64,000 nt of DNA, taken from contig JBMNJG010000011.1 in NCBI GenBank assembly GCA_050951545.1, positions 320,001 to 384,000 of the forward strand. Reading direction: 5' to 3'. This document shows, in pieces, positions 22,048 to 62,671 of the stretch. The position numbers and the translations under genes are program-made. Within the stretch, counting starts at the first letter, position 1; each line of letters opens with the position of its first letter. The notes beneath the pieces were generated by a model. It worked only from the letters and a program-made list of their open reading frames with translations, made no database searches and was not told where the DNA came from. Origin of the DNA: Limnochordia bacterium. GTDB lineage: Bacteria > Bacillota > Limnochordia > DTU080.

Positions 22048-23527
22048 TACACCGTTTGAGGTGATCGTGGGTCTCGAAGTTCACGCAGAACTGCTTACAG
22101 AGTCAAAGATATTCTGCGGTTGTTCGACGGCCTTTGGAGCCACGCCAAATACGCAGGTATGCCCTGTTTGCTTGGGCCTGCCAGGTACGTTACCAGTGCT
22201 CAACGAAAAGGCCGTTGAGTATGCCGCGAAAGCAGGTCTGGCTCTGGGGTGTGCCATTTCCTTGGTCAGCCGGTTCGATCGTAAGCAGTATTTCTATCCG
22301 GACCTTCCCAAGGCTTACCAGGTCTCGCAGTTTGATCGTCCCCTGTGTACAGACGGACGCGTGGAGTTCATGCTTGGCGGTGAGCTGCATGTAGTCAGGA
22401 TCATGCGGGTGCATATGGAAGAAGAGGCTGGTAAGTCTGTCCACTCCAGCGATAGCTTGCGCGACTCGCAGTACTCGCTTATCGACTACAATCGTGGTGG
22501 ACTAGCACTCATTGAGATCGTCACCCACCCCGACATGCATTCGGGTGACGAAGCCAGGCTCTTTATGGAGCGCCTGCACACTCTGCTGCGCTATATCGAG
22601 GTGTCAGATTGCAGGATGCAGGAAGGATCTCTGCGTTGCGATGCCAATGTCAACCTGAAGATCCTCTCCGGAGAGCAACCGATTCGTACCCCTATTGTGG
22701 AGATCAAGAATCTGAACTCCTTAAGAGCCTTGGAGCGAGCGATTGACTACGAGGCGCAGCGTCAGTACCATGAGTACCTTGATGGTTCGTGGCACCCCGG
22801 CATGCCATCTGGGAAGGTGACGGCGGGGTGGAATGATATCGAGAGTCGCACCTATGTGCAGCGTGAGAAAGAACACGCCGACGATTACCGTTACTTCCCT
22901 GACCCTGATATTCTACCGGTCGTAGTGCGCGAAGGGCAGGTAGAGGCGTGGCGCAGGCAGCTGCCCGAGCTGCCTGCAGCGCGCGAAGCTCGTTTCATAA
23001 GTGAGTATGACCTTCCCGCATATGATGCTGCAGTGCTTACAGCCTCTCGTCCCATCGCTGACTTCTTTGAGGCAGTGGTCGAGCAGTGTCATGACAGCAA
23101 GATGGTCAGTAACTGGATCATGGGCGAGTTGCTTCGGTTGCTCAAGGAGGCGGAAGACGACTCGGAGCATGCTCTTCTCTCGGCCCCCATCACCGCTGCA
23201 GGCTTGGCGCAGTTGCTGCTCATGGTCAAGGAGGGGCGCATTAACGCCAACAGCGGTAAAGAGGTCTTAGAGGTCATGTACCGCACTGGTCGTACGGCTG
23301 AGGACATTGTGCATGAACGTGGCCTAGAACAGATTAGCGACACCGATAAGCTAGATCGCTTAGTCGCAGAGGTCATCGACAAGCATCCTGAGGTGGTAAC
23401 TGAGATCAAGGGCGGGAAGGTAACGGCTATCGGCTTTCTCGTGGGTCAGGTGATGAAGGCGACCCGTGGTCAGGCCAATCCAAAATTGGTCAATCAGTCG
23501 TTGCGGGACCGACTGGGCGTGGATTAG
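22040..23527 (+). CDS. gatB: Asp/Glu-tRNA amidotransferase subunit B
   Basis: GLEVHAEL, YFYPDLPK, EGSLRCDANV, EIKNLNS, DYRYFPDPD, GQVMKATRGQANP. Confidence 0.98.
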   Translation: MDDTPFEVIVGLEVHAELLTESKIFCGCSTAFGATPNTQVCPVCLGLPGTLPVLNEKAVEYAAKAGLALGCAISLVSRFDRKQYFYPDLPKAYQVSQFDRPLCTDGRVEFMLGGELHVVRIMRVHMEEEAGKSVHSSDSLRDSQYSLIDYNRGGLALIEIVTHPDMHSGDEARLFMERLHTLLRYIEVSDCRMQEGSLRCDANVNLKILSGEQPIRTPIVEIKNLNSLRALERAIDYEAQRQYHEYLDGSWHPGMPSGKVTAGWNDIESRTYVQREKEHADDYRYFPDPDILPVVVREGQVEAWRRQLPELPAAREARFISEYDLPAYDAAVLTASRPIADFFEAVVEQCHDSKMVSNWIMGELLRLLKEAEDDSEHALLSAPITAAGLAQLLLMVKEGRINANSGKEVLEVMYRTGRTAEDIVHERGLEQISDTDKLDRLVAEVIDKHPEVVTEIKGGKVTAIGFLVGQVMKATRGQANPKLVNQSLRDRLGVD

Positions 23528-23537
23528 GAGCTGGGGA

Positions 23538-24395
23538 ATGTATGGCGAGCTACTGCGGATAGGGCCCATTGCCCTCTATAAGTATGGGACCGCGTTGGCC
23601 GCGGCTTTTCTGGTTGGCGCATGTTTGGCGATGTCGGAGGCTCGGCGCCGCAGGCTGGACACGACAGTCATCGTTGAGCTAGTGGTGCATCTGATGGTGT
23701 TGGGCCTGATTAGCGGTAGAGTGGGCTACATCCTCCCAGACTTGGGTTTTTACCTAACCCATCCGAGTGAGTTTTTCAGGGTGTCGGCCGGTGGGCTGAG
23801 CTATGTTACCGCGTTTGTGGTGGCTGTTGGCTACACTCGTTTCTACGCGAAGCGTCGTGGGCTGCGTTTCTGGGAGCTGCTAGATATATTGGCTCCGGGT
23901 CTAGCCGCCGGGCTGATCATTGGGTCGCTAGGAGCCGTGGAGTGGCAGCCGGCGAAAGGCGCCGTGCATCTAGGCCCTATCTACTGGTCGCCACCGGTAC
24001 TGCTCTTTTTCACCATCGAATACGCTGGGTGTTGGTACATCATGGCGTCGCGACGTCGTCTGCCCGAAGGGCGACGCTTCTGCCAGATTGTGGCCGTGGA
24101 TGCTCTGGCTCGGATGCTGAGTAGTCTATGGGCCTGGATCCTCTATGAAGAGTTCTTGCCGCACGCTTTGTCGACGCTTGTGGGCGCGGTGTTTCTTGTT
24201 GGGGCGTTGGTGTTCGGGCAGATGCTCACCTTTCACCACAGCGGGTTACTGGAGAGTGCGGCGGCAGGTGAGATGACGCAGGCGCGGCGACCCCGCAAGC
24301 GGAGGCTGCCCGCGCGTCAGCGCGCAGTGCTTGCCGCCACTTGGCTAGGCTTTTATCTGCTTTTGGTCGGCTTGCTAGGTCGGACGCCGATGTAG
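23538..24395 (+). CDS. Lgt-like membrane protein (divergent)
   Basis: LRIGPIALYKYG, GRVGYI, GGLSY and LLDILAPGLA resemble the Lgt N-half; the conserved HGG and GRxGN motifs are absent. Confidence 0.6.
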   Translation: MYGELLRIGPIALYKYGTALAAAFLVGACLAMSEARRRRLDTTVIVELVVHLMVLGLISGRVGYILPDLGFYLTHPSEFFRVSAGGLSYVTAFVVAVGYTRFYAKRRGLRFWELLDILAPGLAAGLIIGSLGAVEWQPAKGAVHLGPIYWSPPVLLFFTIEYAGCWYIMASRRRLPEGRRFCQIVAVDALARMLSSLWAWILYEEFLPHALSTLVGAVFLVGALVFGQMLTFHHSGLLESAAAGEMTQARRPRKRRLPARQRAVLAATWLGFYLLLVGLLGRTPM

Positions 24396-24462
24396 ATGCC
24401 AGCCCAGCTGCTTGGGGGCCACGCAAGAAACTGCGGCAATCTTCCTGCGGTCGCTTGGGTTG

Positions 24463-24585
24463 GTGGTAAGAACCTAGCGATGCGGTCTTCGCGAAGCCCT
24501 TTTTGCTCATTTTGGTCGCCCGAAGGGCTTTTTTCACCGCCTAAGGGCACACTTTCCCGCCTTGATTTCGCTTCTGGGGCTACCG
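24463..24585. repeat. Partial, more diverged copy of the 406-bp repeat
   Basis: GTGGTAA..AGCGATGCGG(T/C)CTTCGCGAAGCCCTTTTTGCTCATTTTG..CGCCCGAAGGGCT..CTTTCCCG..CTTCTGGGGCTACCG aligns to the middle of the units; offset 472 from unit 1. Confidence 0.9.
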
Positions 24586-24809
24586 TGGATACGCTTCACT
24601 TCGGCCCTACCAAAATGGCCTAGAAAGCTCACGGTAAGCTAGGCCGGTAAAACAGCGCGCTCACCAAAAACCTGCCATCGATCCAGGCCCCAAGCTGCGG
24701 GCCATGGATTCTGATGGACAACTCCTCCATGAGTTGCCCACAGACTCCACAGCCCCGACCAAAGACATCCATTGATTCATTTATTCGTTGTTTCTGGCTG
24801 TTATCTAGT

Positions 24810-25918
24810 TGGACACGCTCGCGAGACTGGCTCGGTAGTCGGACAGATGCACCCGGATTGGTACGTGAGTCGGGGCCAAGAATCCGACCGTGATGGCAAA
24901 ATAGCCGCCCCATCAACCCCTGGGCGCAATGTACGTGGTAAAAGTGCAGCGATGCGGCCTTCGCGAAGCCCTTTTTGCTCATTTTGATCGCCCGAAGGGC
25001 TCTTTTCCCCGCCAAGAGCACGCTTTCCCGTCTCATGGCCCTTCTGGAGCTACCGGGCAGTACATAACCGAACAGTGTCGATCGCCTTTTTCCACTCAGT
25101 CGATGGGGTCAGCTCCCCAGTGCGCGATCACAGCGGGCTCGCTCGGGTCCCTCTGCGAACCGACCCTTCGGTGTTAACCCGGTGGGTGTGTTTCGAAAAG
25201 GGTGGACGGACACCATGCACACCCTCGCGAGACTCGCTCGGTAGTCGGACAGATGCACCCGCATTGGTACGTGAGTCGGGGTCAAGAATCCGACCGTGAT
25301 GGCAAAAGAGCCGCCTCATTAACCCCCGGGGCCAATGTACGTGGTAAAAGTGCAGCGATGCGGCCTTCGCGAAGCCCTTTTGGTTGGTTTGGACGGCCTG
25401 AAGGGCTCTTTCCCCCCAAAAAGAGCGCGCTTTCCCGCCCTGGCGGCCCTTCTGGGGCTACCACGCAGCACATAACCGAACGGTAGTGACTGCCTTTTTC
25501 CACTCAGTCGATGGGGTCAGCTCCCCAGTGCGCGATCACAGCGGCTCGCTCGGGTCCCTCTGCGAACCGACCCTTCAGTGTTAACCCGGTCGGTGCATTT
25601 GGAAGAGAATGGACGGATCAATGGACACGCTCGCGAGACTGGCTCGGTAGTCGGACAGATGCACCCGGATTGGTACGTGAGTCGGGGCCAAGAATCCGAC
25701 CGTGATGGCAAAATAGCCGCCCCATCAACCCCTGGGCGCAATGTACGTGGTAAAAGTGCAGCGATGCGGCCTTCGCGAAGCCCTTTTTGCTCATTTTGAT
25801 CGCCCGAAGGGCTCTTTTCCCCGCAAAGAGCACGCTTTCCGGCCTTGATGCCTCTTCTGGAGCTGCCGGACGGTACATAACCCGACGGTGGTGGTACCTT
25901 TTTCCCACTCAGTCGATG
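24810..25918. repeat. Tandem array, 406-bp period, ~2.7 copies (units start ~24810, ~25216, ~25622)
   Basis: Anchor TCGCGAGACT at 24819/25225/25631 and GCGATGCGGCC at 24949/25355/25761; all spacings are 406. Confidence 0.97.
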
Positions 25919-26049
25919 ATCCGAGGGGGAAATGCTGTCGACTCCCGGTGGCCACTGGGTCTTAGCTGGCAATGCGCGCGCAGTCAGCGAAGAACTATTG
26001 TCTGTGGAAGGATTCTGGAGCCGAACATAGAATTCAGCATTGAATCAAT

Positions 26050-26063
26050 CGAACACATGGTCG
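26050..26063. promoter_or_regulatory. Putative Firmicutes LexA (Cheo/SOS) box
   Basis: CGAACACATGGTCG matches 13/14 to CGAACRNRYGTTCG; lies between a TAGAAT -10-like hexamer (26028) and the RBS. Confidence 0.55.
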
Positions 26064-26081
26064 TTATGTGAGGTGAGGCCC

Positions 26082-27143
26082 TTGTACTCTCTCTATGTAG
26101 ATGAGGTGAACGTGCCGCTCTCACTGCTACTGACTCGCGAGCTAAAAGCCAGCGAGAAGATCGTTTGGATGGCCTTAACGATGGATGATCAGCTGGAGGA
26201 AAGTTTCCTTTTCTCGCCCAGCCGCCTGGGGCGGCGCACGGGTATGTCCCGGCCTACCGTTCGCAGGGCGACAGCCAAGTTAACCACCGAGGGCTGGTTT
26301 GCTCCACCGGCTAGGCGGGGACCTAGCCAGACCGCGGCACAGAAGCCATCCCCGGATAGGGTCTCCGTACCTGTGGAGTTAGTCATGGCTACTGAAATCC
26401 ATGCACAGGCCAAATTGGTTTATGCCCTACTGCTGTCCAAACCTACGGACCCACCTCGCAAAAGGCAGTTCACATACGCTGAGTTAGCCGGCCGGATGAG
26501 TCTGAGCCCCCAAACCATCAAACACGCGGCTCGTCAGTTGGCCAAGCATGGTTGGCTGGAGATGGAGCAGGCGCACAAGCGGGCACCGATTCGCTTCACT
26601 CTCCACAACCCGGTTGATAAGCGAAATGTAAAAGAAATACTAGACGTGCAGGATGAGCTCCACCGCGCTACGCACCTCGGAGAGGCTCTCATGCAGGCTA
26701 TCTTCTTGGCGCTTGTCGATTGCCTTGACTTCGACGACGGAATGCGCCCAGGTTTCATGAGGAACCCAGCAACTGGCAAGCGTCTGGAGGTCGATCTCTT
26801 CTATTACTTGCACAATACGGCCATGGAGTTCAATGGGGCGCAACACTACCGCGTCACGGAGCGGAATTCGGCTGAGCAGGTCCATAAGCAGCAATGCCGT
26901 GACCAGACCAAACAGCAGATCTGCGCTAAGAAGAAGATCAAGCTGATCGTGATTCAGGCTCACGAGCTGTCCTGCAAGATCATCAAGCGCAAGATTGACA
27001 GGCGGCTGCCATTCCGGCGCGGTCAGGACTTCAACCGGAAGCTCATCAACTATCTCGAGTGTAGATGCGGTGAATACCAGCAAAGAATAGATGAGCGCGG
27101 CTGGGGAACCGCCAGCCAATCTGAGAGAAAGCAAGACGAGTAG
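26082..27143 (+). CDS. Tandem winged-HTH protein with C-terminal Vsr/DUF559-like PD-(D/E)XK nuclease domain
   Basis: TTG 26082 after GAGGTGAGG; two related segments VP.(S/E)L......A..K.V...L...HTH...L...GW; then GEAL...RPGFMRNPATGKRLEVD...MEFNGAQHY...RD..K...C......LIVI. Confidence 0.7.
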   Translation: MYSLYVDEVNVPLSLLLTRELKASEKIVWMALTMDDQLEESFLFSPSRLGRRTGMSRPTVRRATAKLTTEGWFAPPARRGPSQTAAQKPSPDRVSVPVELVMATEIHAQAKLVYALLLSKPTDPPRKRQFTYAELAGRMSLSPQTIKHAARQLAKHGWLEMEQAHKRAPIRFTLHNPVDKRNVKEILDVQDELHRATHLGEALMQAIFLALVDCLDFDDGMRPGFMRNPATGKRLEVDLFYYLHNTAMEFNGAQHYRVTERNSAEQVHKQQCRDQTKQQICAKKKIKLIVIQAHELSCKIIKRKIDRRLPFRRGQDFNRKLINYLECRCGEYQQRIDERGWGTASQSERKQDE

Positions 27144-27457
27144 TCACCTTGGGTCACCTTGTTCGTTTCGTCAGGGCTCACATCGCAGGAGGAGATGAAC
27201 CCTTTATCCGAGGCTGGAGGCCGCTGGCTACCCCATTGGCAGCGGATGCGTAGAAAGCGCCTGTAAGCAGGTTGTTGTTAGGCGCCACAAGCAATCTGGA
27301 ATGCGTTGGAGCCAACTTAGGGCACAGCAGATGCCAAACGTTGCAGCATACTCCCACGGTGAACAGTGGGACGATTTCTGGGAGAGGCCAGGGGCAGCAT
27401 GATTAGTAACGGGTGTTCGCCGCGATTTCACGTGTGCACCCAGCTGCTTGCTTGTGC

Positions 27458-27486
27458 TTGACAGCCGGGAGGTTGAACTGTATGAT
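27458..27486 (+). promoter_or_regulatory. sigmaA promoter of valS leader
   Basis: TTGACA-17 nt-TATGAT. Confidence 0.85.
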
Positions 27487-27504
27487 GTGGAAAACTGGCT
27501 TATT

Positions 27505-27746
27505 GCACGGTGATGAAGGGGAGGAGTAACGGTTCAGCCCCGAAAAAAGAGAGGCTGCCCTTGGCTGGGAGGTAGCCCGGACGGACCGTGAATGTCGCCC
27601 TGGAGCAGCTTATCCCAAAATAGGCCGGGTGCGCCCGTTATCGCGTGTAGCAAGCGCCTTTGGTGCCCCCTTATGTGGTGTCAAAGGAACTAAGGTGGTA
27701 CCGCGCGAGTCTACGCGTCCTTATGGAGGACGCGTTTTTGTTTTTA
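27505..27746 (+). promoter_or_regulatory. T-box riboswitch (Val)
   Basis: Stem I with AGTA, AGAGA and GGCTGGGA motifs; specifier GTC at 27594; T-box AAGGTGGTACCGCG at 27692; terminator ACGCGTCCTT/GAGGACGCGT plus T run. Confidence 0.93.
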
Positions 27747-27783
27747 GCAGTTTGCGGATTAACCGAAGAGGAGGGAGCGCCGC

Positions 27784-30459
27784 ATGGCGCAACGCGTCTT
27801 TTCATCTACTGCAGCTGTGGAGCTACCCAAGGTGTATGATCCAAAGGCAGTGGAGAGCAAATGGTACAAGAGGTGGGAGGAGCGGGGCTACTTCCATGCC
27901 CAGGCTCGTCCCGGACGACCCAAGTTCAGCATGGTCATTCCGCCACCCAATGTGACGGGTTCATTGCACATGGGACATGCACTCAACAACACGTTGCAGG
28001 ATGTCTTACTGCGTTGGCACCGGATGATGGGCCATGACGCCCTTTGGGTTCCGGGCACGGATCACGCTGGAATTGCCACACAGATCAAAGTGGAGGAGCA
28101 CCTGCGCAAAGAAGAGGGTCTCACCCGTCACGATGTGGGGCGTGAGCGCTTCCTGGAGCGCGTCTGGGCCTGGAAAGAGCGATATCACGCAAACATTGTG
28201 GGCCAGCTGAAGACACTGGGTTGTGCGGTGGACTGGCAGCGAGAGCGCTTTACAATGGATGAGGGATGCTCCAAGGCGGTACGTGAGGTCTTCGTTCGGC
28301 TCTATGAGAGGGGCCTCATCTACCAGGGTAGCTACATCGTGAACTGGTGTCCGCACTGCCATACAACACTCTCTGACGTGGAAGTGGAGCATGAGGAAGT
28401 AGAGGGTCACCTGTGGTACATTCGCTATCCTATGGCTTCAGGTGAGGGGTATGCGATGGTTGCCACAACTCGTCCTGAGACCATGCTCGGCGATACGGCC
28501 ATAGCCGTGCATCCTGATGATGAACGCTATGCCGCTCAGGTGGGGCAGAGCGTTGTCTTGCCCCTGATGAATCGCGAGATACCGCTCATCGCAGATAGTT
28601 TCGTAGATCCGGCGTTCGGTACCGGCATGGTCAAGGTGACGCCAGCCCATGATCCGAATGACTGCGAGATGGGCGAACGCCACGGACTGGCCCGCATTCA
28701 GGTGATTGACGAAGATGGTTGTATGAACTCTGAAGCCGGGGCCTATGCTGGTCTGGAGCGCTATGCGTGTCGGGATAGCGTTGTTGCTGACCTGGAGAAG
28801 CAAGGCTTTCTGGTCAAGGTGGAGGATCATCTGCACGCAGTGGGTCACTGCTATCGCTGTGGCACGGTGGTAGAACCCCTGATCTCTAAGCAGTGGTTTG
28901 TCCGTATGAAGCCCTTGGCAGGTCCTGCTATCGAGGCGGTGCAGCGGGGCGACATCCGTTTTATCCCTGAGCGCTTTGCGAAGCAGTACCTGCACTGGAT
29001 GGAGAACACCCGAGACTGGTGTATCTCGCGCCAGTTGTGGTGGGGTCATCGCATTCCAGTTTGGACCTGTCAGGCTTGTGGAGAGCAGTTTGCTTCGAAA
29101 CACGACCCGGAGAAGTGCCCCGTATGTGCCGAAGCGCGACTAGAACAAGACCCGGATGTGCTCGATACCTGGTTTAGCTCTGCTCTCTGGCCTTTCTCAA
29201 CATTGGGGTGGCCGGACCAGACGGAAGACCTTGCCGATTTTTATCCTACTTCGGTCTTGGTTACGGCGTATGACATCATCACTTTCTGGGTGGCTCGCAT
29301 GATCTTTTCGGGTCTGGAGCACACAGGGCAAAAGCCCTTCCACGAGGTGCTGGTGCATGGGCTTGTGCGTGACGCATTGGGCCGAAAAATGAGTAAGTCG
29401 CTGGGCAATGGCGTAGATCCGCTCGAGGTGATCGACGAGAACGGCGCGGACGCGTTGCGCTTCACACTGCTTACGGGTGTGGCTCCGGGTAACGACACGC
29501 GCTATCATCCAGAGCGTACCGAAGCCAATCGGAACTATGCCAACAAGATCTGGAATGCCTCTCGCTTTGCTCTGATGAATATGCAGGATTTTCAACCAAC
29601 AGAGCAAGCCTTGACCGAGCTATCGCTCGAGCTTCCTGATCGCTGGATTCTGGCTCGCCTGAATTCGACAGTACGCGAAGTGAGCCGCCATCTGTCACGC
29701 TACGATTTCGGTGAGGGTGCACGGGCTCTGTACGACTTCATGTGGAGCGAAGTATGCGACTGGTATATCGAAGCTGTGAAACCGAGGCTGTACGGGCAGT
29801 ACGGTGCGGAGAGTCGCCGGACAGCTCAGAGCGTGCTTTGGCAGGTGCTTTTGCGCACTTTGGAGCTACTACACCCCTTCATGCCGTTTATCACGGAAGA
29901 GATATGGCAACACCTTCCTCATGAAGGCGAATCGATCATGCTAGCATCGTGGCCTGTCGAGGTTCCAGAGTGGGAAGATGGCGACGCGGTGGAGCAGATG
30001 GGGGTGGTGATGGACGTAGTGCGAGCCATCCGCAACATGCGCTCTGAGAAGACGGTGTCTCCCGAGAAGGCCATTCAGGCCATTCTCCATGCCGATGCGG
30101 GGAAGACCGCTATCTTGTCCGAAAACCGGGAGACAGTAATGCATTTGGCGCATCTGTCGGAGTTGGCGCTTGAGGGAGTGGATCATGCTAAGCCGGACCA
30201 AGCATTGGCGGCGGTGGCCGCGGGAGTTGAGGTATTCTTACCTCTAGCGGGCTTGGTTGACATTGACGAGGAGTTAGCTCGGCTACAGAAGGAGCTAGCA
30301 GAGGTTGATGAGCATCTGGCGCGTACTCGCGCTCGTCTCAGCAATCCGGGCTTTGTGAACAAGGCCCCTGCGCAGGTGGTGGAGGGTGCACGCCGCCAGC
30401 TAAGCGACTTGGAGGAGCGAAGAGCGAAACTGGCTGCAACGCTTGCCGATCTGCAGTGA
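27784..30459 (+). CDS. valS: Valyl-tRNA synthetase
   Basis: [38 protein letters not shown]-terminal coiled coil. Confidence 0.99.
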
Positions 30460-57699: not shown

Positions 57700-59223
<1,524 letters not shown>

Positions 59224-59489
59224 GCCAAGGCGGTCAGTCTTGGCTACTCCTAGGTCGGCCCTTGCTGATGTACGCTGTTTAGTTGCCAGGGACTGGAGCA
59301 GTCTTTGCACCTTGACAACTGCACAGAGGAGAAAAGGTGACGATACACACACCTGCCGCGACTGACATCGACGCGGTGAGGTGTGTATGGAGATCGTTTG
59401 ATGGTCCCTCGACCATCATGGCGACTCCTAGTTGCCTGAGGAGACTTACAAACCTAGCGTGGCTCAAAAGAGCACACGCGGGCTTAATC

Positions 59490-62473
<2,984 letters not shown>

Positions 62474-62551
62474 TAAAAGTAGTAAGCTCTCAGGCAGCAA
62501 TCGTCATCTTATCTTCTGTGCAGTTGTGAGGGTGCACAGCACCTGGAGACT

Positions 62552-62671
62552 TTGTCGGTGGCAATGGCGGAGGGGACCCACCCGTTCCCATCCCGAACAC
62601 GGCAGTTAAGCCCTCCAGCGGTGATGGTACTGCAGGGGTAACCCTGTGGGAGAGTAGCTCGCTGCCGGCAA
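62552..62671 (+). rRNA. rrf: 5S rRNA
   Basis: CCCGTTCCCATCCCGAACACGG, GATGGTACT, GGGAGAGTAG; helix I TTGTCGGTGGC/GCTGCCGGCAA. Confidence 0.97.

Follow-up and report, generated by a model that had tools for sequence, protein, structure and literature searches.

The stretch of DNA analyzed here (the window) comprises 64,000 nucleotides of the genome of a Limnochordia bacterium (assembly GCA_050951545.1, contig JBMNJG010000011.1, positions 320,001 to 384,000). Positions 24415-27441 of the window were identified as one copy of a mobile element with features of the ISKra4 group of insertion sequences (IS), which carries an array of long tandem repeats and a gene coding for two winged helix-turn-helix (wHTH) domains joined to a Vsr-like nuclease domain. 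The copy ends in terminal inverted repeats, which are imperfect, and is flanked by a duplicated 9-bp target sequence (AGCTGCTTG). As stated in a preliminary description of the locus, it lies between an lgt-like gene (Pfam LGT, E 1.4e-22), whose stop codon is at 24395, and the valS promoter at 27458-27486. The features of the element are listed in Table 1.

Table 1. Features of the mobile element at the lgt-valS locus and its direct flanks (positions in the window).
Feature	Position	Strand	Remarks
Left target-site duplication AGCTGCTTG	24406..24414	.	Identical 9-mer recurs at 27442-27450
Left terminal inverted repeat GGGGCCACGCAAGAAACTGCGG	24415..24436	+	Start of homology among copies; 14/22 positions match inward-read right end
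First, partial repeat unit (unit positions 126-246)	24463..24585	+	Arrays of other copies also start at about 126-139
224-bp insertion like a miniature inverted-repeat transposable element (MITE), separate from the unit	24586..24809	.	97-99% identical copies elsewhere
Repeat unit 1, 406 bp	24810..25215	+	Tandem Repeats Finder (TRF), unit matches
Best-conserved unit core	24935..24980	+	Per-column conservation; once per unit, also 24463, 25341, 25747
Repeat unit 2 (identity with unit 1, 88%)	25216..25621	+	Unit matches
Last, partial unit (unit positions 1-296)	25622..25918	+	All arrays stop at unit position 296
Degenerate upstream LexA-like box CGAACATAGAATTC	26022..26035	+	Overlaps TAGAAT hexamer
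Putative LexA (Cheo-type) box CGAACACATGGTCG	26050..26063	+	About 6 nt before ribosome-binding site; conserved in families A-D
Cargo gene, two winged helices (Rep/pi-like) and C-terminal Vsr/EDxHD-like nuclease domain	26082..27143	+	353 aa, TTG start
ISKra4-family DDE transposase remnant (last 67 codons and stop)	27199..27402	+	NCBIfam NF033572 match
GAAC-N4-GTTC box in right end	27407..27418	+	TAAC in window copy, GAAC in other copies
Right terminal inverted repeat, inward GGGTGCACACGTGAAATCGCGG	27420..27441	-	End of homology among copies
Right target-site duplication, 9 bp	27442..27450	.	valS -35 box TTGACA begins at 27458

The homology between the copies of the element begins with GGGGCCACGCAAAAAACTGCGG and ends with ...ATTTCACGTGTGCACCC, and the element ends GGGGCCACGC... 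and GGGTGCACACGTG... form an imperfect inverted repeat (14/22). Both outer junctions are bridged by DNA contigs of sequencing run X1 without differences, and position 27407 is a G in all four sequencing runs compared. In both of the two same-genus genomes (G001, G002) the element is absent from the locus and the valS -35 box directly follows the lgt stop codon. The block is thus an accessory segment, as had been proposed, and moreover a mobile and selfish one.

The valS promoter (TTGACA-17-TATGAT) matches the consensus at 11 of 12 positions and is followed by a T-box leader at 27504-27725 (Rfam RF00230, 101 bits) with a terminator at 27713-27735. The distance between the element and the valS -35 box is only 16 nt, and the transposon might therefore affect the expression of valS.

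In the genome, 82 matches for the repeat unit and 34 for the protein were found. The genes fall into four families, with about 17 copies in family A, to which the window copy belongs, four in family B, seven to eight in family C and two in family D. By mapping the segments of the block onto the genome, the matches of unit and gene were resolved into the about 17 copies of family A, which share one architecture consisting of the left end, the array, a link of 73-121 bp, the gene and a variable right arm. The size of the element ranges from roughly 2.5 to 4 kb. All arrays begin at about unit position 126-139 and stop at position 296, with a length of 2.5 to 6.5 units. Arrays without a gene are deletion derivatives that have retained the left end, and every array in the genome belongs to an element copy or to such a derivative. 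Eight copies have both ends, of which six are flanked by a duplication (four 9/9, one 8/9, and one 10/10 beside a variant tip). The link (25919-26081 in the window) and its counterparts occur as two sequence types plus mosaics of both, which indicates recombination between the copies. The ends of the element were found in none of the other repeat families of the genome.

Besides, a 1717-bp IS4/IS701-like IS with a 486-aa DDE transposase and CAGGACTTCCGCAAG... ends was observed beside or inside several element copies (C11:1516-3232, C16:36605-38321, and adjoining C7:660068).

The 260 bp preceding the right end contain an in-frame sequence (TLYPRLEAAGYPIGSGCVESACK...WDDFWERPGAA, then a stop codon), which matches positions 368-410 of the 422 positions of the ISKra4-family transposase profile NF033572 (E 1.1e-16, 61 bits, cut-off 205). 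No transposase had been noted in the preliminary description. None is indeed intact, but the 67-codon remnant and the inverted repeat are located just past the block described there (27199-27441). Ten such remnants exist in the genome, all of them at right ends of family A. In the copies C7c and C16, the remnant belongs to a small unit that has a left-type end of its own (GGGGTCCACGCAAAAAATAGCGG) and an apparent transposase start. This small unit is situated 17 nt past a shorter right end of the cargo element, and the outermost ends are flanked by the 9-bp duplication. The point at which the cargo joins the remnant varies between copies, and the remaining copies look like different internal deletions of the arrangement in C7c and C16.

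For comparison, relatives of the remnant were collected from 80 metagenomic loci, 63 of which have open frames of at least 330 aa. The best 28 inverted repeats among these 63 full-length relatives begin with GGGTG, GAGTG or GGTGT (e.g., GGGTGCGCGTCACGATTTTGCGC), i.e., these relatives have GGGTGCGCGTCA...-type ends. In the same 28 relatives the inverted repeat is located 9-43 nt past the stop codon, and in the window element 39 nt past it. Duplications of 9-10 bp were found in two of the three relatives inspected.

According to the passages of Guerillot et al. (2014; PMC3942029) used here, bacterial Mutator-type elements have inverted repeats of 18-39 bp and direct repeats of 8 or 9 bp, and TnGBS elements insert 15-17 bp upstream of sigma-A promoters. 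The same passages describe this promoter-upstream targeting with conserved orientation for ISLre2 and a number of elements in the ISKra4 group, and mention extra genes carried by four ISKra4 elements. In the genome under study, a promoter-like site was found within 70 nt of the element in four of 12 right flanks (at 16, 16, 11, and 36 nt), compared with 0.7% of 20,000 random positions; this count was made before the ISKra4 targeting statement of PMC3942029 was known.

The element thus carries the footprint of the ISKra4 group as far as it is given in these passages, namely the type of inverted repeat, 9-bp direct repeats and insertion upstream of promoters. Because ends, footprint, target choice and remnant all agree, it can be assigned to this group, and the earlier statement that the block is not assignable to an IS class is no longer tenable. 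As no intact transposase accompanies these features, the element is very probably a non-autonomous ISKra4-group derivative of the Mutator-superfamily DDE type carrying the array and the gene as cargo; such derivatives are known as mobile insertion cassettes or as IS that carry passenger genes.

One further ISKra4-like IS occurs in the genome. It is distant, encodes a 541-aa transposase (NF033572, 81 bits, below the cut-off) and is present in three copies (L101-L103; C9:24082-25803, C2:219040-220741, and C16:149380-151074). Its ends CTGTGTGTGTAAGATGTTTACGGG (CTGTGTGTGTAAGATG...) differ from those of the cargo element and its duplications are about 8 bp long; the sequence CAACGCAAAAACTGCATA, found inward of its right end by about 60 nt, is similar to the left end of the cargo element.

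The tandem array at 24463-25918 had been recognized before, and TRF detected it with a period of 406, 2.7 copies and 86% matches at 24810-25918, to which the partial unit at 24463-24585 has to be added. The repeat stretch of about 1.5 kb described initially is not made up of units only, since the segment 24586-24809 is a foreign 224-bp insertion. The units are 80-96% identical, the best match of any unit in another array does not exceed 96.4%, and the variation is spread in blocks resembling recombinant haplotypes. Their best-conserved part, the core at about unit positions 126-170, contains one copy of the palindrome GGCCTTCGCGAAGCC in each unit. About 45 nt of this core, 29 columns of which are invariant, are common to family A and to the 262-bp unit of family B, in which the palindrome itself is not preserved. 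This suggests that the core is a conserved site linked with the gene, the simplest candidate being a site to which a protein binds.

Three further copies of the 224-bp MITE-like insertion are located at C7:70981-71203 (inside another array, in opposite orientation), C13:20080-20303, and C14:2152-2375. Partial matches were found near family D copies, and one RNA-library contig (run X16) likewise contains the insertion.

The preliminary description had called the repeats structured, which was not confirmed. An Rfam scan of 23500-28000 at E<=1 yielded nothing but the valS T-box. Folding of the unit gave z-scores of 0.12 and 0.96 and hence no excess stability on either strand, and RNAalifold returned a covariation term of -3.2 kcal/mol with only two compensatory pairs among 77. 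A compensatory-looking hairpin at unit positions 61-81 was not counted, since its registers differ in two haplotypes. The per-column conservation of the units revealed no spacer-like variable block as expected of a CRISPR/TIGR-like guide array. The RNA-library contigs (X15, X16) cover the gene at 26285-27155 and the 224-bp insertion and hardly the array; they are silent on absence, strand and level of transcripts.

An origin of the units as fossil end-to-end junctions or as copies of the left end was also considered and rejected, as the similarity between ends and units was not significant (98 of 500, 807 of 1000, and 889 of 1000 shuffles were as good). The number of end-like 22-mers inside the element is that expected by chance (12 vs. 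12.0).

The cargo gene starts with the TTG codon at 26082, preceded by the ribosome-binding site GAGGTGAGG (26070-26078). Pfam identifies two wHTH domains in the protein (HTH_36, MarR, and others), and an AlphaFold2 model was built from an alignment of 108 sequences (pLDDT 92, pTM 0.86). Residues 4-177 of the model are the two winged helices, which superpose on the iteron-bound pi initiator (2nra_C, VIA Z 8.7, 166 residues). With Foldseek they likewise superpose on RepE (1rep_C; 222 columns, TM score of 0.45 on the target), and the N-terminus matches replication-initiator families of PHROG. Residues 196-310 superpose on Vsr (1cw0_A; VIA Z 8.1, 103 residues, root-mean-square deviation 2.9), on the catalytic domain of I-Bth0305I (3r3p_B; Z 7.7, 93 of 98 residues) as well as on 3hrl_A (Z 7.6), and the C-terminus matches PHROG families annotated as homing, HNH or intron nucleases (E 1e-9 to 1e-11). 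The gene was therefore correctly described as a fusion of two wHTH domains and a Vsr-like domain.

Foldseek against the PDB yielded nothing at E<=0.001, and a sequence profile retrieved only HTH proteins from the PDB, with Vsr and I-Bth0305I missing at E<=1. The protein has no match in NCBIfam, PADLOC or among plasmids, and phage matches are confined to the nuclease domain. Pfam did not find the Rep_3 signature, and neither iterons of about 20 bp nor a plasmid location apply. Likewise, the gene does not reside where a homing endonuclease gene would, namely in an intron or intein or next to its cleavage site within a conserved host gene, as it lies inside a transposon in intergenic DNA and its neighbors differ in 34 of 34 loci.

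The 108 sequences show near-invariant residues at D238, E249, G252, Q254, H255, R273, D274, and K277, with D238, H255, and D274 conserved in at least 90%; N251 is invariant in the eight closest sequences. The order Asp...Asn...His...Asp resembles that of the I-Bth0305I residues named in the part of PMC3239194 used here, compared by order only. DUF2726 of Pfam was matched by 11 of the 108 family members.

Among the full-length family A copies 13 of 15 are intact and two are frameshifted, and two more copies have internal deletions. The 13 intact copies show a ratio of non-synonymous to synonymous substitution rates (dN/dS) of 0.17 at a dS of 0.05, which is about equal to the divergence of the non-coding tail (94-97% identical). 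The cargo gene is under purifying selection.

A LexA-like box upstream of the gene had been proposed, and it was confirmed: in family A, 15 of 15 copies have CGAAC-N4-G(G/T)TCG at a distance of about 6 nt ahead of the ribosome-binding site. A perfect GAAC-N4-GTTC is present upstream of the gene in families B and D, and family C has a version with one mismatch plus a second box. The box and the ribosome-binding site are the only significant similarity between the upstream regions of families A and B. In the host, the lexA promoter (C12:76100-76240, L091) contains four Cheo-type boxes, including the perfect palindrome CGAACTTTTGTTCG, which the boxes of the element match; the 260 nt preceding recA showed no Cheo-type box. 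By its sequence and its position next to the ribosome-binding site the box is a predicted LexA (SOS) operator, and the cargo gene is apparently under DNA-damage control. Alternatively, the palindrome could be a site for the winged-helix protein of the element itself. Families A, B, and C have another GAAC-N4-GTTC box near the right end, about 25 nt inward of it. The -10-like hexamer proposed upstream of the gene (TAGAAT, 26028-33) occurs in only three of 15 copies and was not called by the promoter scan.

The proteins of families B and D are about 55% and 47-50% identical to that of family A, respectively. Tandem arrays are found in three families, with units of 406 bp in A, 262 bp in B and 94 bp in C, the latter two being located downstream of the gene. 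The linkage of repeats and gene is therefore recurrent in this genome, with family A arrays confined to element copies and their derivatives and families B and C having arrays of their own.

The family B loci (L041-L044; C7:258046-260605, C8:1294-4129, C9:76262-79100, and C13:20300-22530) have the same two types of ends as family A, and the gene is inverted relative to the ends. The family C copies (L047-L052, C6:141046-142961) are about 1.9 kb long and have an array of 2-4.6 units about 300 bp past the gene; unit-like sequence also stands at the left boundary. The 13-mer GGCCCCGACTCAC is common to the units of families C and A, on opposite strands.

A HMMER search of 1.84 billion representative sequences identified 235 clusters at E<=1e-30, mostly of full length, and named 'hypothetical' or 'MarR family' in the sources. 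The family is present in 14 of 41 relatives (own genome counted) and, in a sample of 401 genomes across the phylum, in 24; the records of 69 family loci name Limnochordia, Symbiobacteriaceae, Thermaerobacter, and other metagenome-assembled genomes of the Bacillota. In genomes of the three named types it is often multi-copy, and the copies in other genomes are old, with a DNA identity of at most 82-84%. The ISKra4 profile found nothing in 107 family loci (L053-L090, L109-L177), nor did the cargo-protein profile in the 80 ISKra4 loci. Therefore, the linkage to ISKra4 ends seems, as far as seen, to be specific to this genome. Long arrays beside homologs in other genomes were found at only two of 20 loci. 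An exact-seed search for inverted repeats at the loci of 20 relatives gave pairs at chance level only; imperfect ends would escape such a search.

At seven of 20 loci in other genomes (L067, L074, L076, L080-L083), tandem repeats of 21-42 bp in two to three copies were observed 230-840 bp upstream of the homolog. Their match quality is low, but they might be iteron-like.

Several observations weigh against the interpretation as a non-autonomous ISKra4-group derivative. A full-length cognate ISKra4 transposase gene was not found in the assembly, which is 93.9% complete and consists of 16 contigs. The 9-bp duplication is absent in copy C2 and imperfect in C4b, at the chosen threshold a promoter-like site is missing from eight of 12 right flanks, and families B, C, and D are without a transposase remnant, even though the ends of family B are of the same type. 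Furthermore, the gene family is multi-copy in genomes without any ISKra4 hit (18 matches in G004 and 13 in G009) and is therefore not ISKra4-dependent in general; transposases are absent from the 124 neighboring open reading frames of 34 full-length loci in other genomes, and the neighbors differ everywhere. Finally, it would be unusual for a gene that is no more than a passenger to be under strong purifying selection in 13 copies.

Based on the ISKra4 features, the following course of events is proposed. Of the original IS, the element has kept both ends and the final 67 transposase codons, and the cargo has replaced the remainder of the transposase gene. The cognate transposase may have been lost or may be unassembled. 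Since no cognate enzyme is present in the assembly, we infer mobilization in trans, and the insertion 16 nt upstream of the valS sigma-A promoter was most likely made by an ISKra4-type transposase acting in this way. The length of the arrays would change by unequal recombination. LexA would repress the cargo gene via the GAAC-N4-GTTC box before the ribosome-binding site, and the binding site of the cargo protein would be the conserved unit core. As selection keeps the gene intact in most copies, the protein presumably acts for the benefit of the element itself, be it in the replication or maintenance of a circular intermediate, by binding the ends, or as a plain selfish nuclease.

A bolder form of this proposal, which we put forward only tentatively and regard as rather improbable, is that gene and array are a working pair, in which, after SOS induction, the Rep/pi-like double winged helix would bind the unit core and the fused Vsr-like nuclease would nick or prime there, so that the pair replicates or stabilizes a circular transposition intermediate of the kind reported for bacterial Mutator-type transposons. 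In that case the pair would be a transposon-borne mini-replicon that raises the copy number of its element, and this would explain the purifying selection on the 'passenger' in 13 copies. Circular intermediates and their plasmid-like replication are described for TnGBS in the consulted passages of PMC3942029.

Among the competing explanations, the one that survives best is that the winged-helix/Vsr-like nuclease is itself the transposase, binding the ends and making the 9-bp staggered cut so that no DDE enzyme is needed. The nuclease gene is the only intact gene throughout families A-D, its dN/dS is low, its family always stands alone at the 34 loci of other genomes and is multi-copy in genomes without ISKra4 hits, and the ends occur in no other element of a genome in which no cognate DDE transposase was found. 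Against this stand the hallmarks of the ISKra4 group, i.e., ends, duplication length, promoter-upstream target and remnant. In addition, the loci of the relatives lack these end motifs, with two stray matches outside this genome, and to our knowledge no PD-(D/E)XK nuclease catalyzes strand transfer unaided. We therefore consider this explanation unlikely, and with it the earlier suggestion that the nuclease spreads the repeat unit, at least as the mechanism of mobility.

Less probable still is a homing-like cassette that parasitizes an IS, whose nuclease would cut intact ISKra4 copies and convert them by repair, so that ends and duplications were inherited from the IS. The similarity of the C-terminal domain to phage homing and intron nucleases and to I-Bth0305I would fit, as would the lack of an intact cognate IS copy in the genome. 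However, the gene has a synonymous divergence (0.05) equal to the divergence of the non-coding parts beside it, so the gene was not homogenized later than the ends, and the differing junctions between cargo and remnant fit deletions better than precise homing.

Two proposals of the preliminary description have very little probability left. The first is an RNA-associated system, in which the array is transcribed to structured or guide RNAs for the nuclease. Long non-coding tandem units beside a nuclease gene, with a core conserved between families A and B, might suggest this; the Rfam, folding and covariation results and the lack of spacer-like segments given above do not support it, and the protein has no known RNA-binding domain. 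The second is the relic of an integrated plasmid-type replicon with Rep and iterons, which would be immobile now. The Rep-like double winged helix is real, as the superposition on pi and RepE and the PHROG initiator matches indicate, and a Rep/iteron-like role of the cargo within the transposon is possible. The relic itself is contradicted by the target duplications, which mark the block as a transposon, by its about 17 copies and by the empty site in the congeners; moreover, a plasmid match and a Rep_3 hit are missing and the units measure 406 bp instead of about 20 bp.

An assembly artefact, with the array as a collapsed or mis-joined repeat that short-read contigs cannot span, can practically be dismissed, as the same architecture recurs at 17 loci with differing unit numbers and unique flanks, units joined head to tail (25604 to 25211 and 25680 to 25274) are found in contigs of another run (X5), and both outer junctions are bridged.

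Apart from the element, the window contains a complete rRNA operon at 57700-62670 (16S 57700-59211, 23S 59490-62475, and 5S 62554-62670). It is one of four copies in the genome of about 5.3-6 kb each.

With the interpretation as a non-autonomous ISKra4-group derivative, the vehicle can now be named as one that lands upstream of promoters. The vehicle is ordinary and the cargo is unusual, as the family of double-winged-helix and Vsr-like proteins has no curated name. In the literature, neither this protein family nor an IS with such a cargo was found described; the elements with extra genes in table S1 of PMC3942029 may bear on this. The genome offers a natural experiment, with four diverged versions of the gene on IS ends, three of them with tandem arrays of their own.

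The closest known systems are the IS of the ISKra4 group (p-MULT 4 DDE), as characterized in the passages of PMC3942029 used here. The element shares with them the GGGTG-type imperfect ends, the 9-bp duplication, the insertion upstream of a sigma-A promoter, about 16 nt away and with fixed orientation, and the C-terminal transposase sequence beside the right end, and some members also carry extra genes. In contrast to them, it retains only 67 transposase codons, has about 2.7 kb of cargo and an internal 406-bp array, and no autonomous partner was found.

Mobile insertion cassettes are known from examples like MIC231. As in the definition of mobile insertion cassettes and IS derivatives with passenger genes in the part of PMC3129680 considered, the element has IS ends without a transposase around passenger DNA unrelated to transposition, and movement is expected by a cognate enzyme in trans. 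Unlike the cassettes described there, it has a selfish-looking nuclease passenger that is intact in 13 copies, about 17 copies in all, and a satellite-like array.

The protein resembles I-Bth0305I and other EDxHD nucleases as well as Vsr in the nuclease fold (Z 7.7-8.1) and, judging from the portion of PMC3239194 used, in the order Asp...Asn...His...Asp and, for I-Bth0305I, in the joining of an N-terminal DNA-binding region to a C-terminal Vsr-like domain. It differs from I-Bth0305I as presented there in having two winged helices instead of NUMOD motifs and in not residing in an intron or intein. With RepE and pi it shares the tandem winged helices and the direct repeats beside the gene, but it lacks the Rep_3 signature, is fused to a nuclease, is accompanied by repeats of 94-406 bp instead of about 20 bp, and is chromosomal and transposon-borne.

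TnpB and IscB of the IS200/IS605 elements are IS-borne nucleases that are not transposases and are maintained by selection. The cargo protein may be compared with them in role only, as an IS-borne nuclease kept by selection that is probably not a transposase; it differs in having no guide RNA and an unrelated fold, and its element does not include a transposase. Should the protein act on the arrays, this would be a new accessory function for insertion sequences with a role comparable to that of TnpB. If it does not, the element would be a clear case of IS derivatives gaining and amplifying selfish genes and satellite-like DNA in bacteria.

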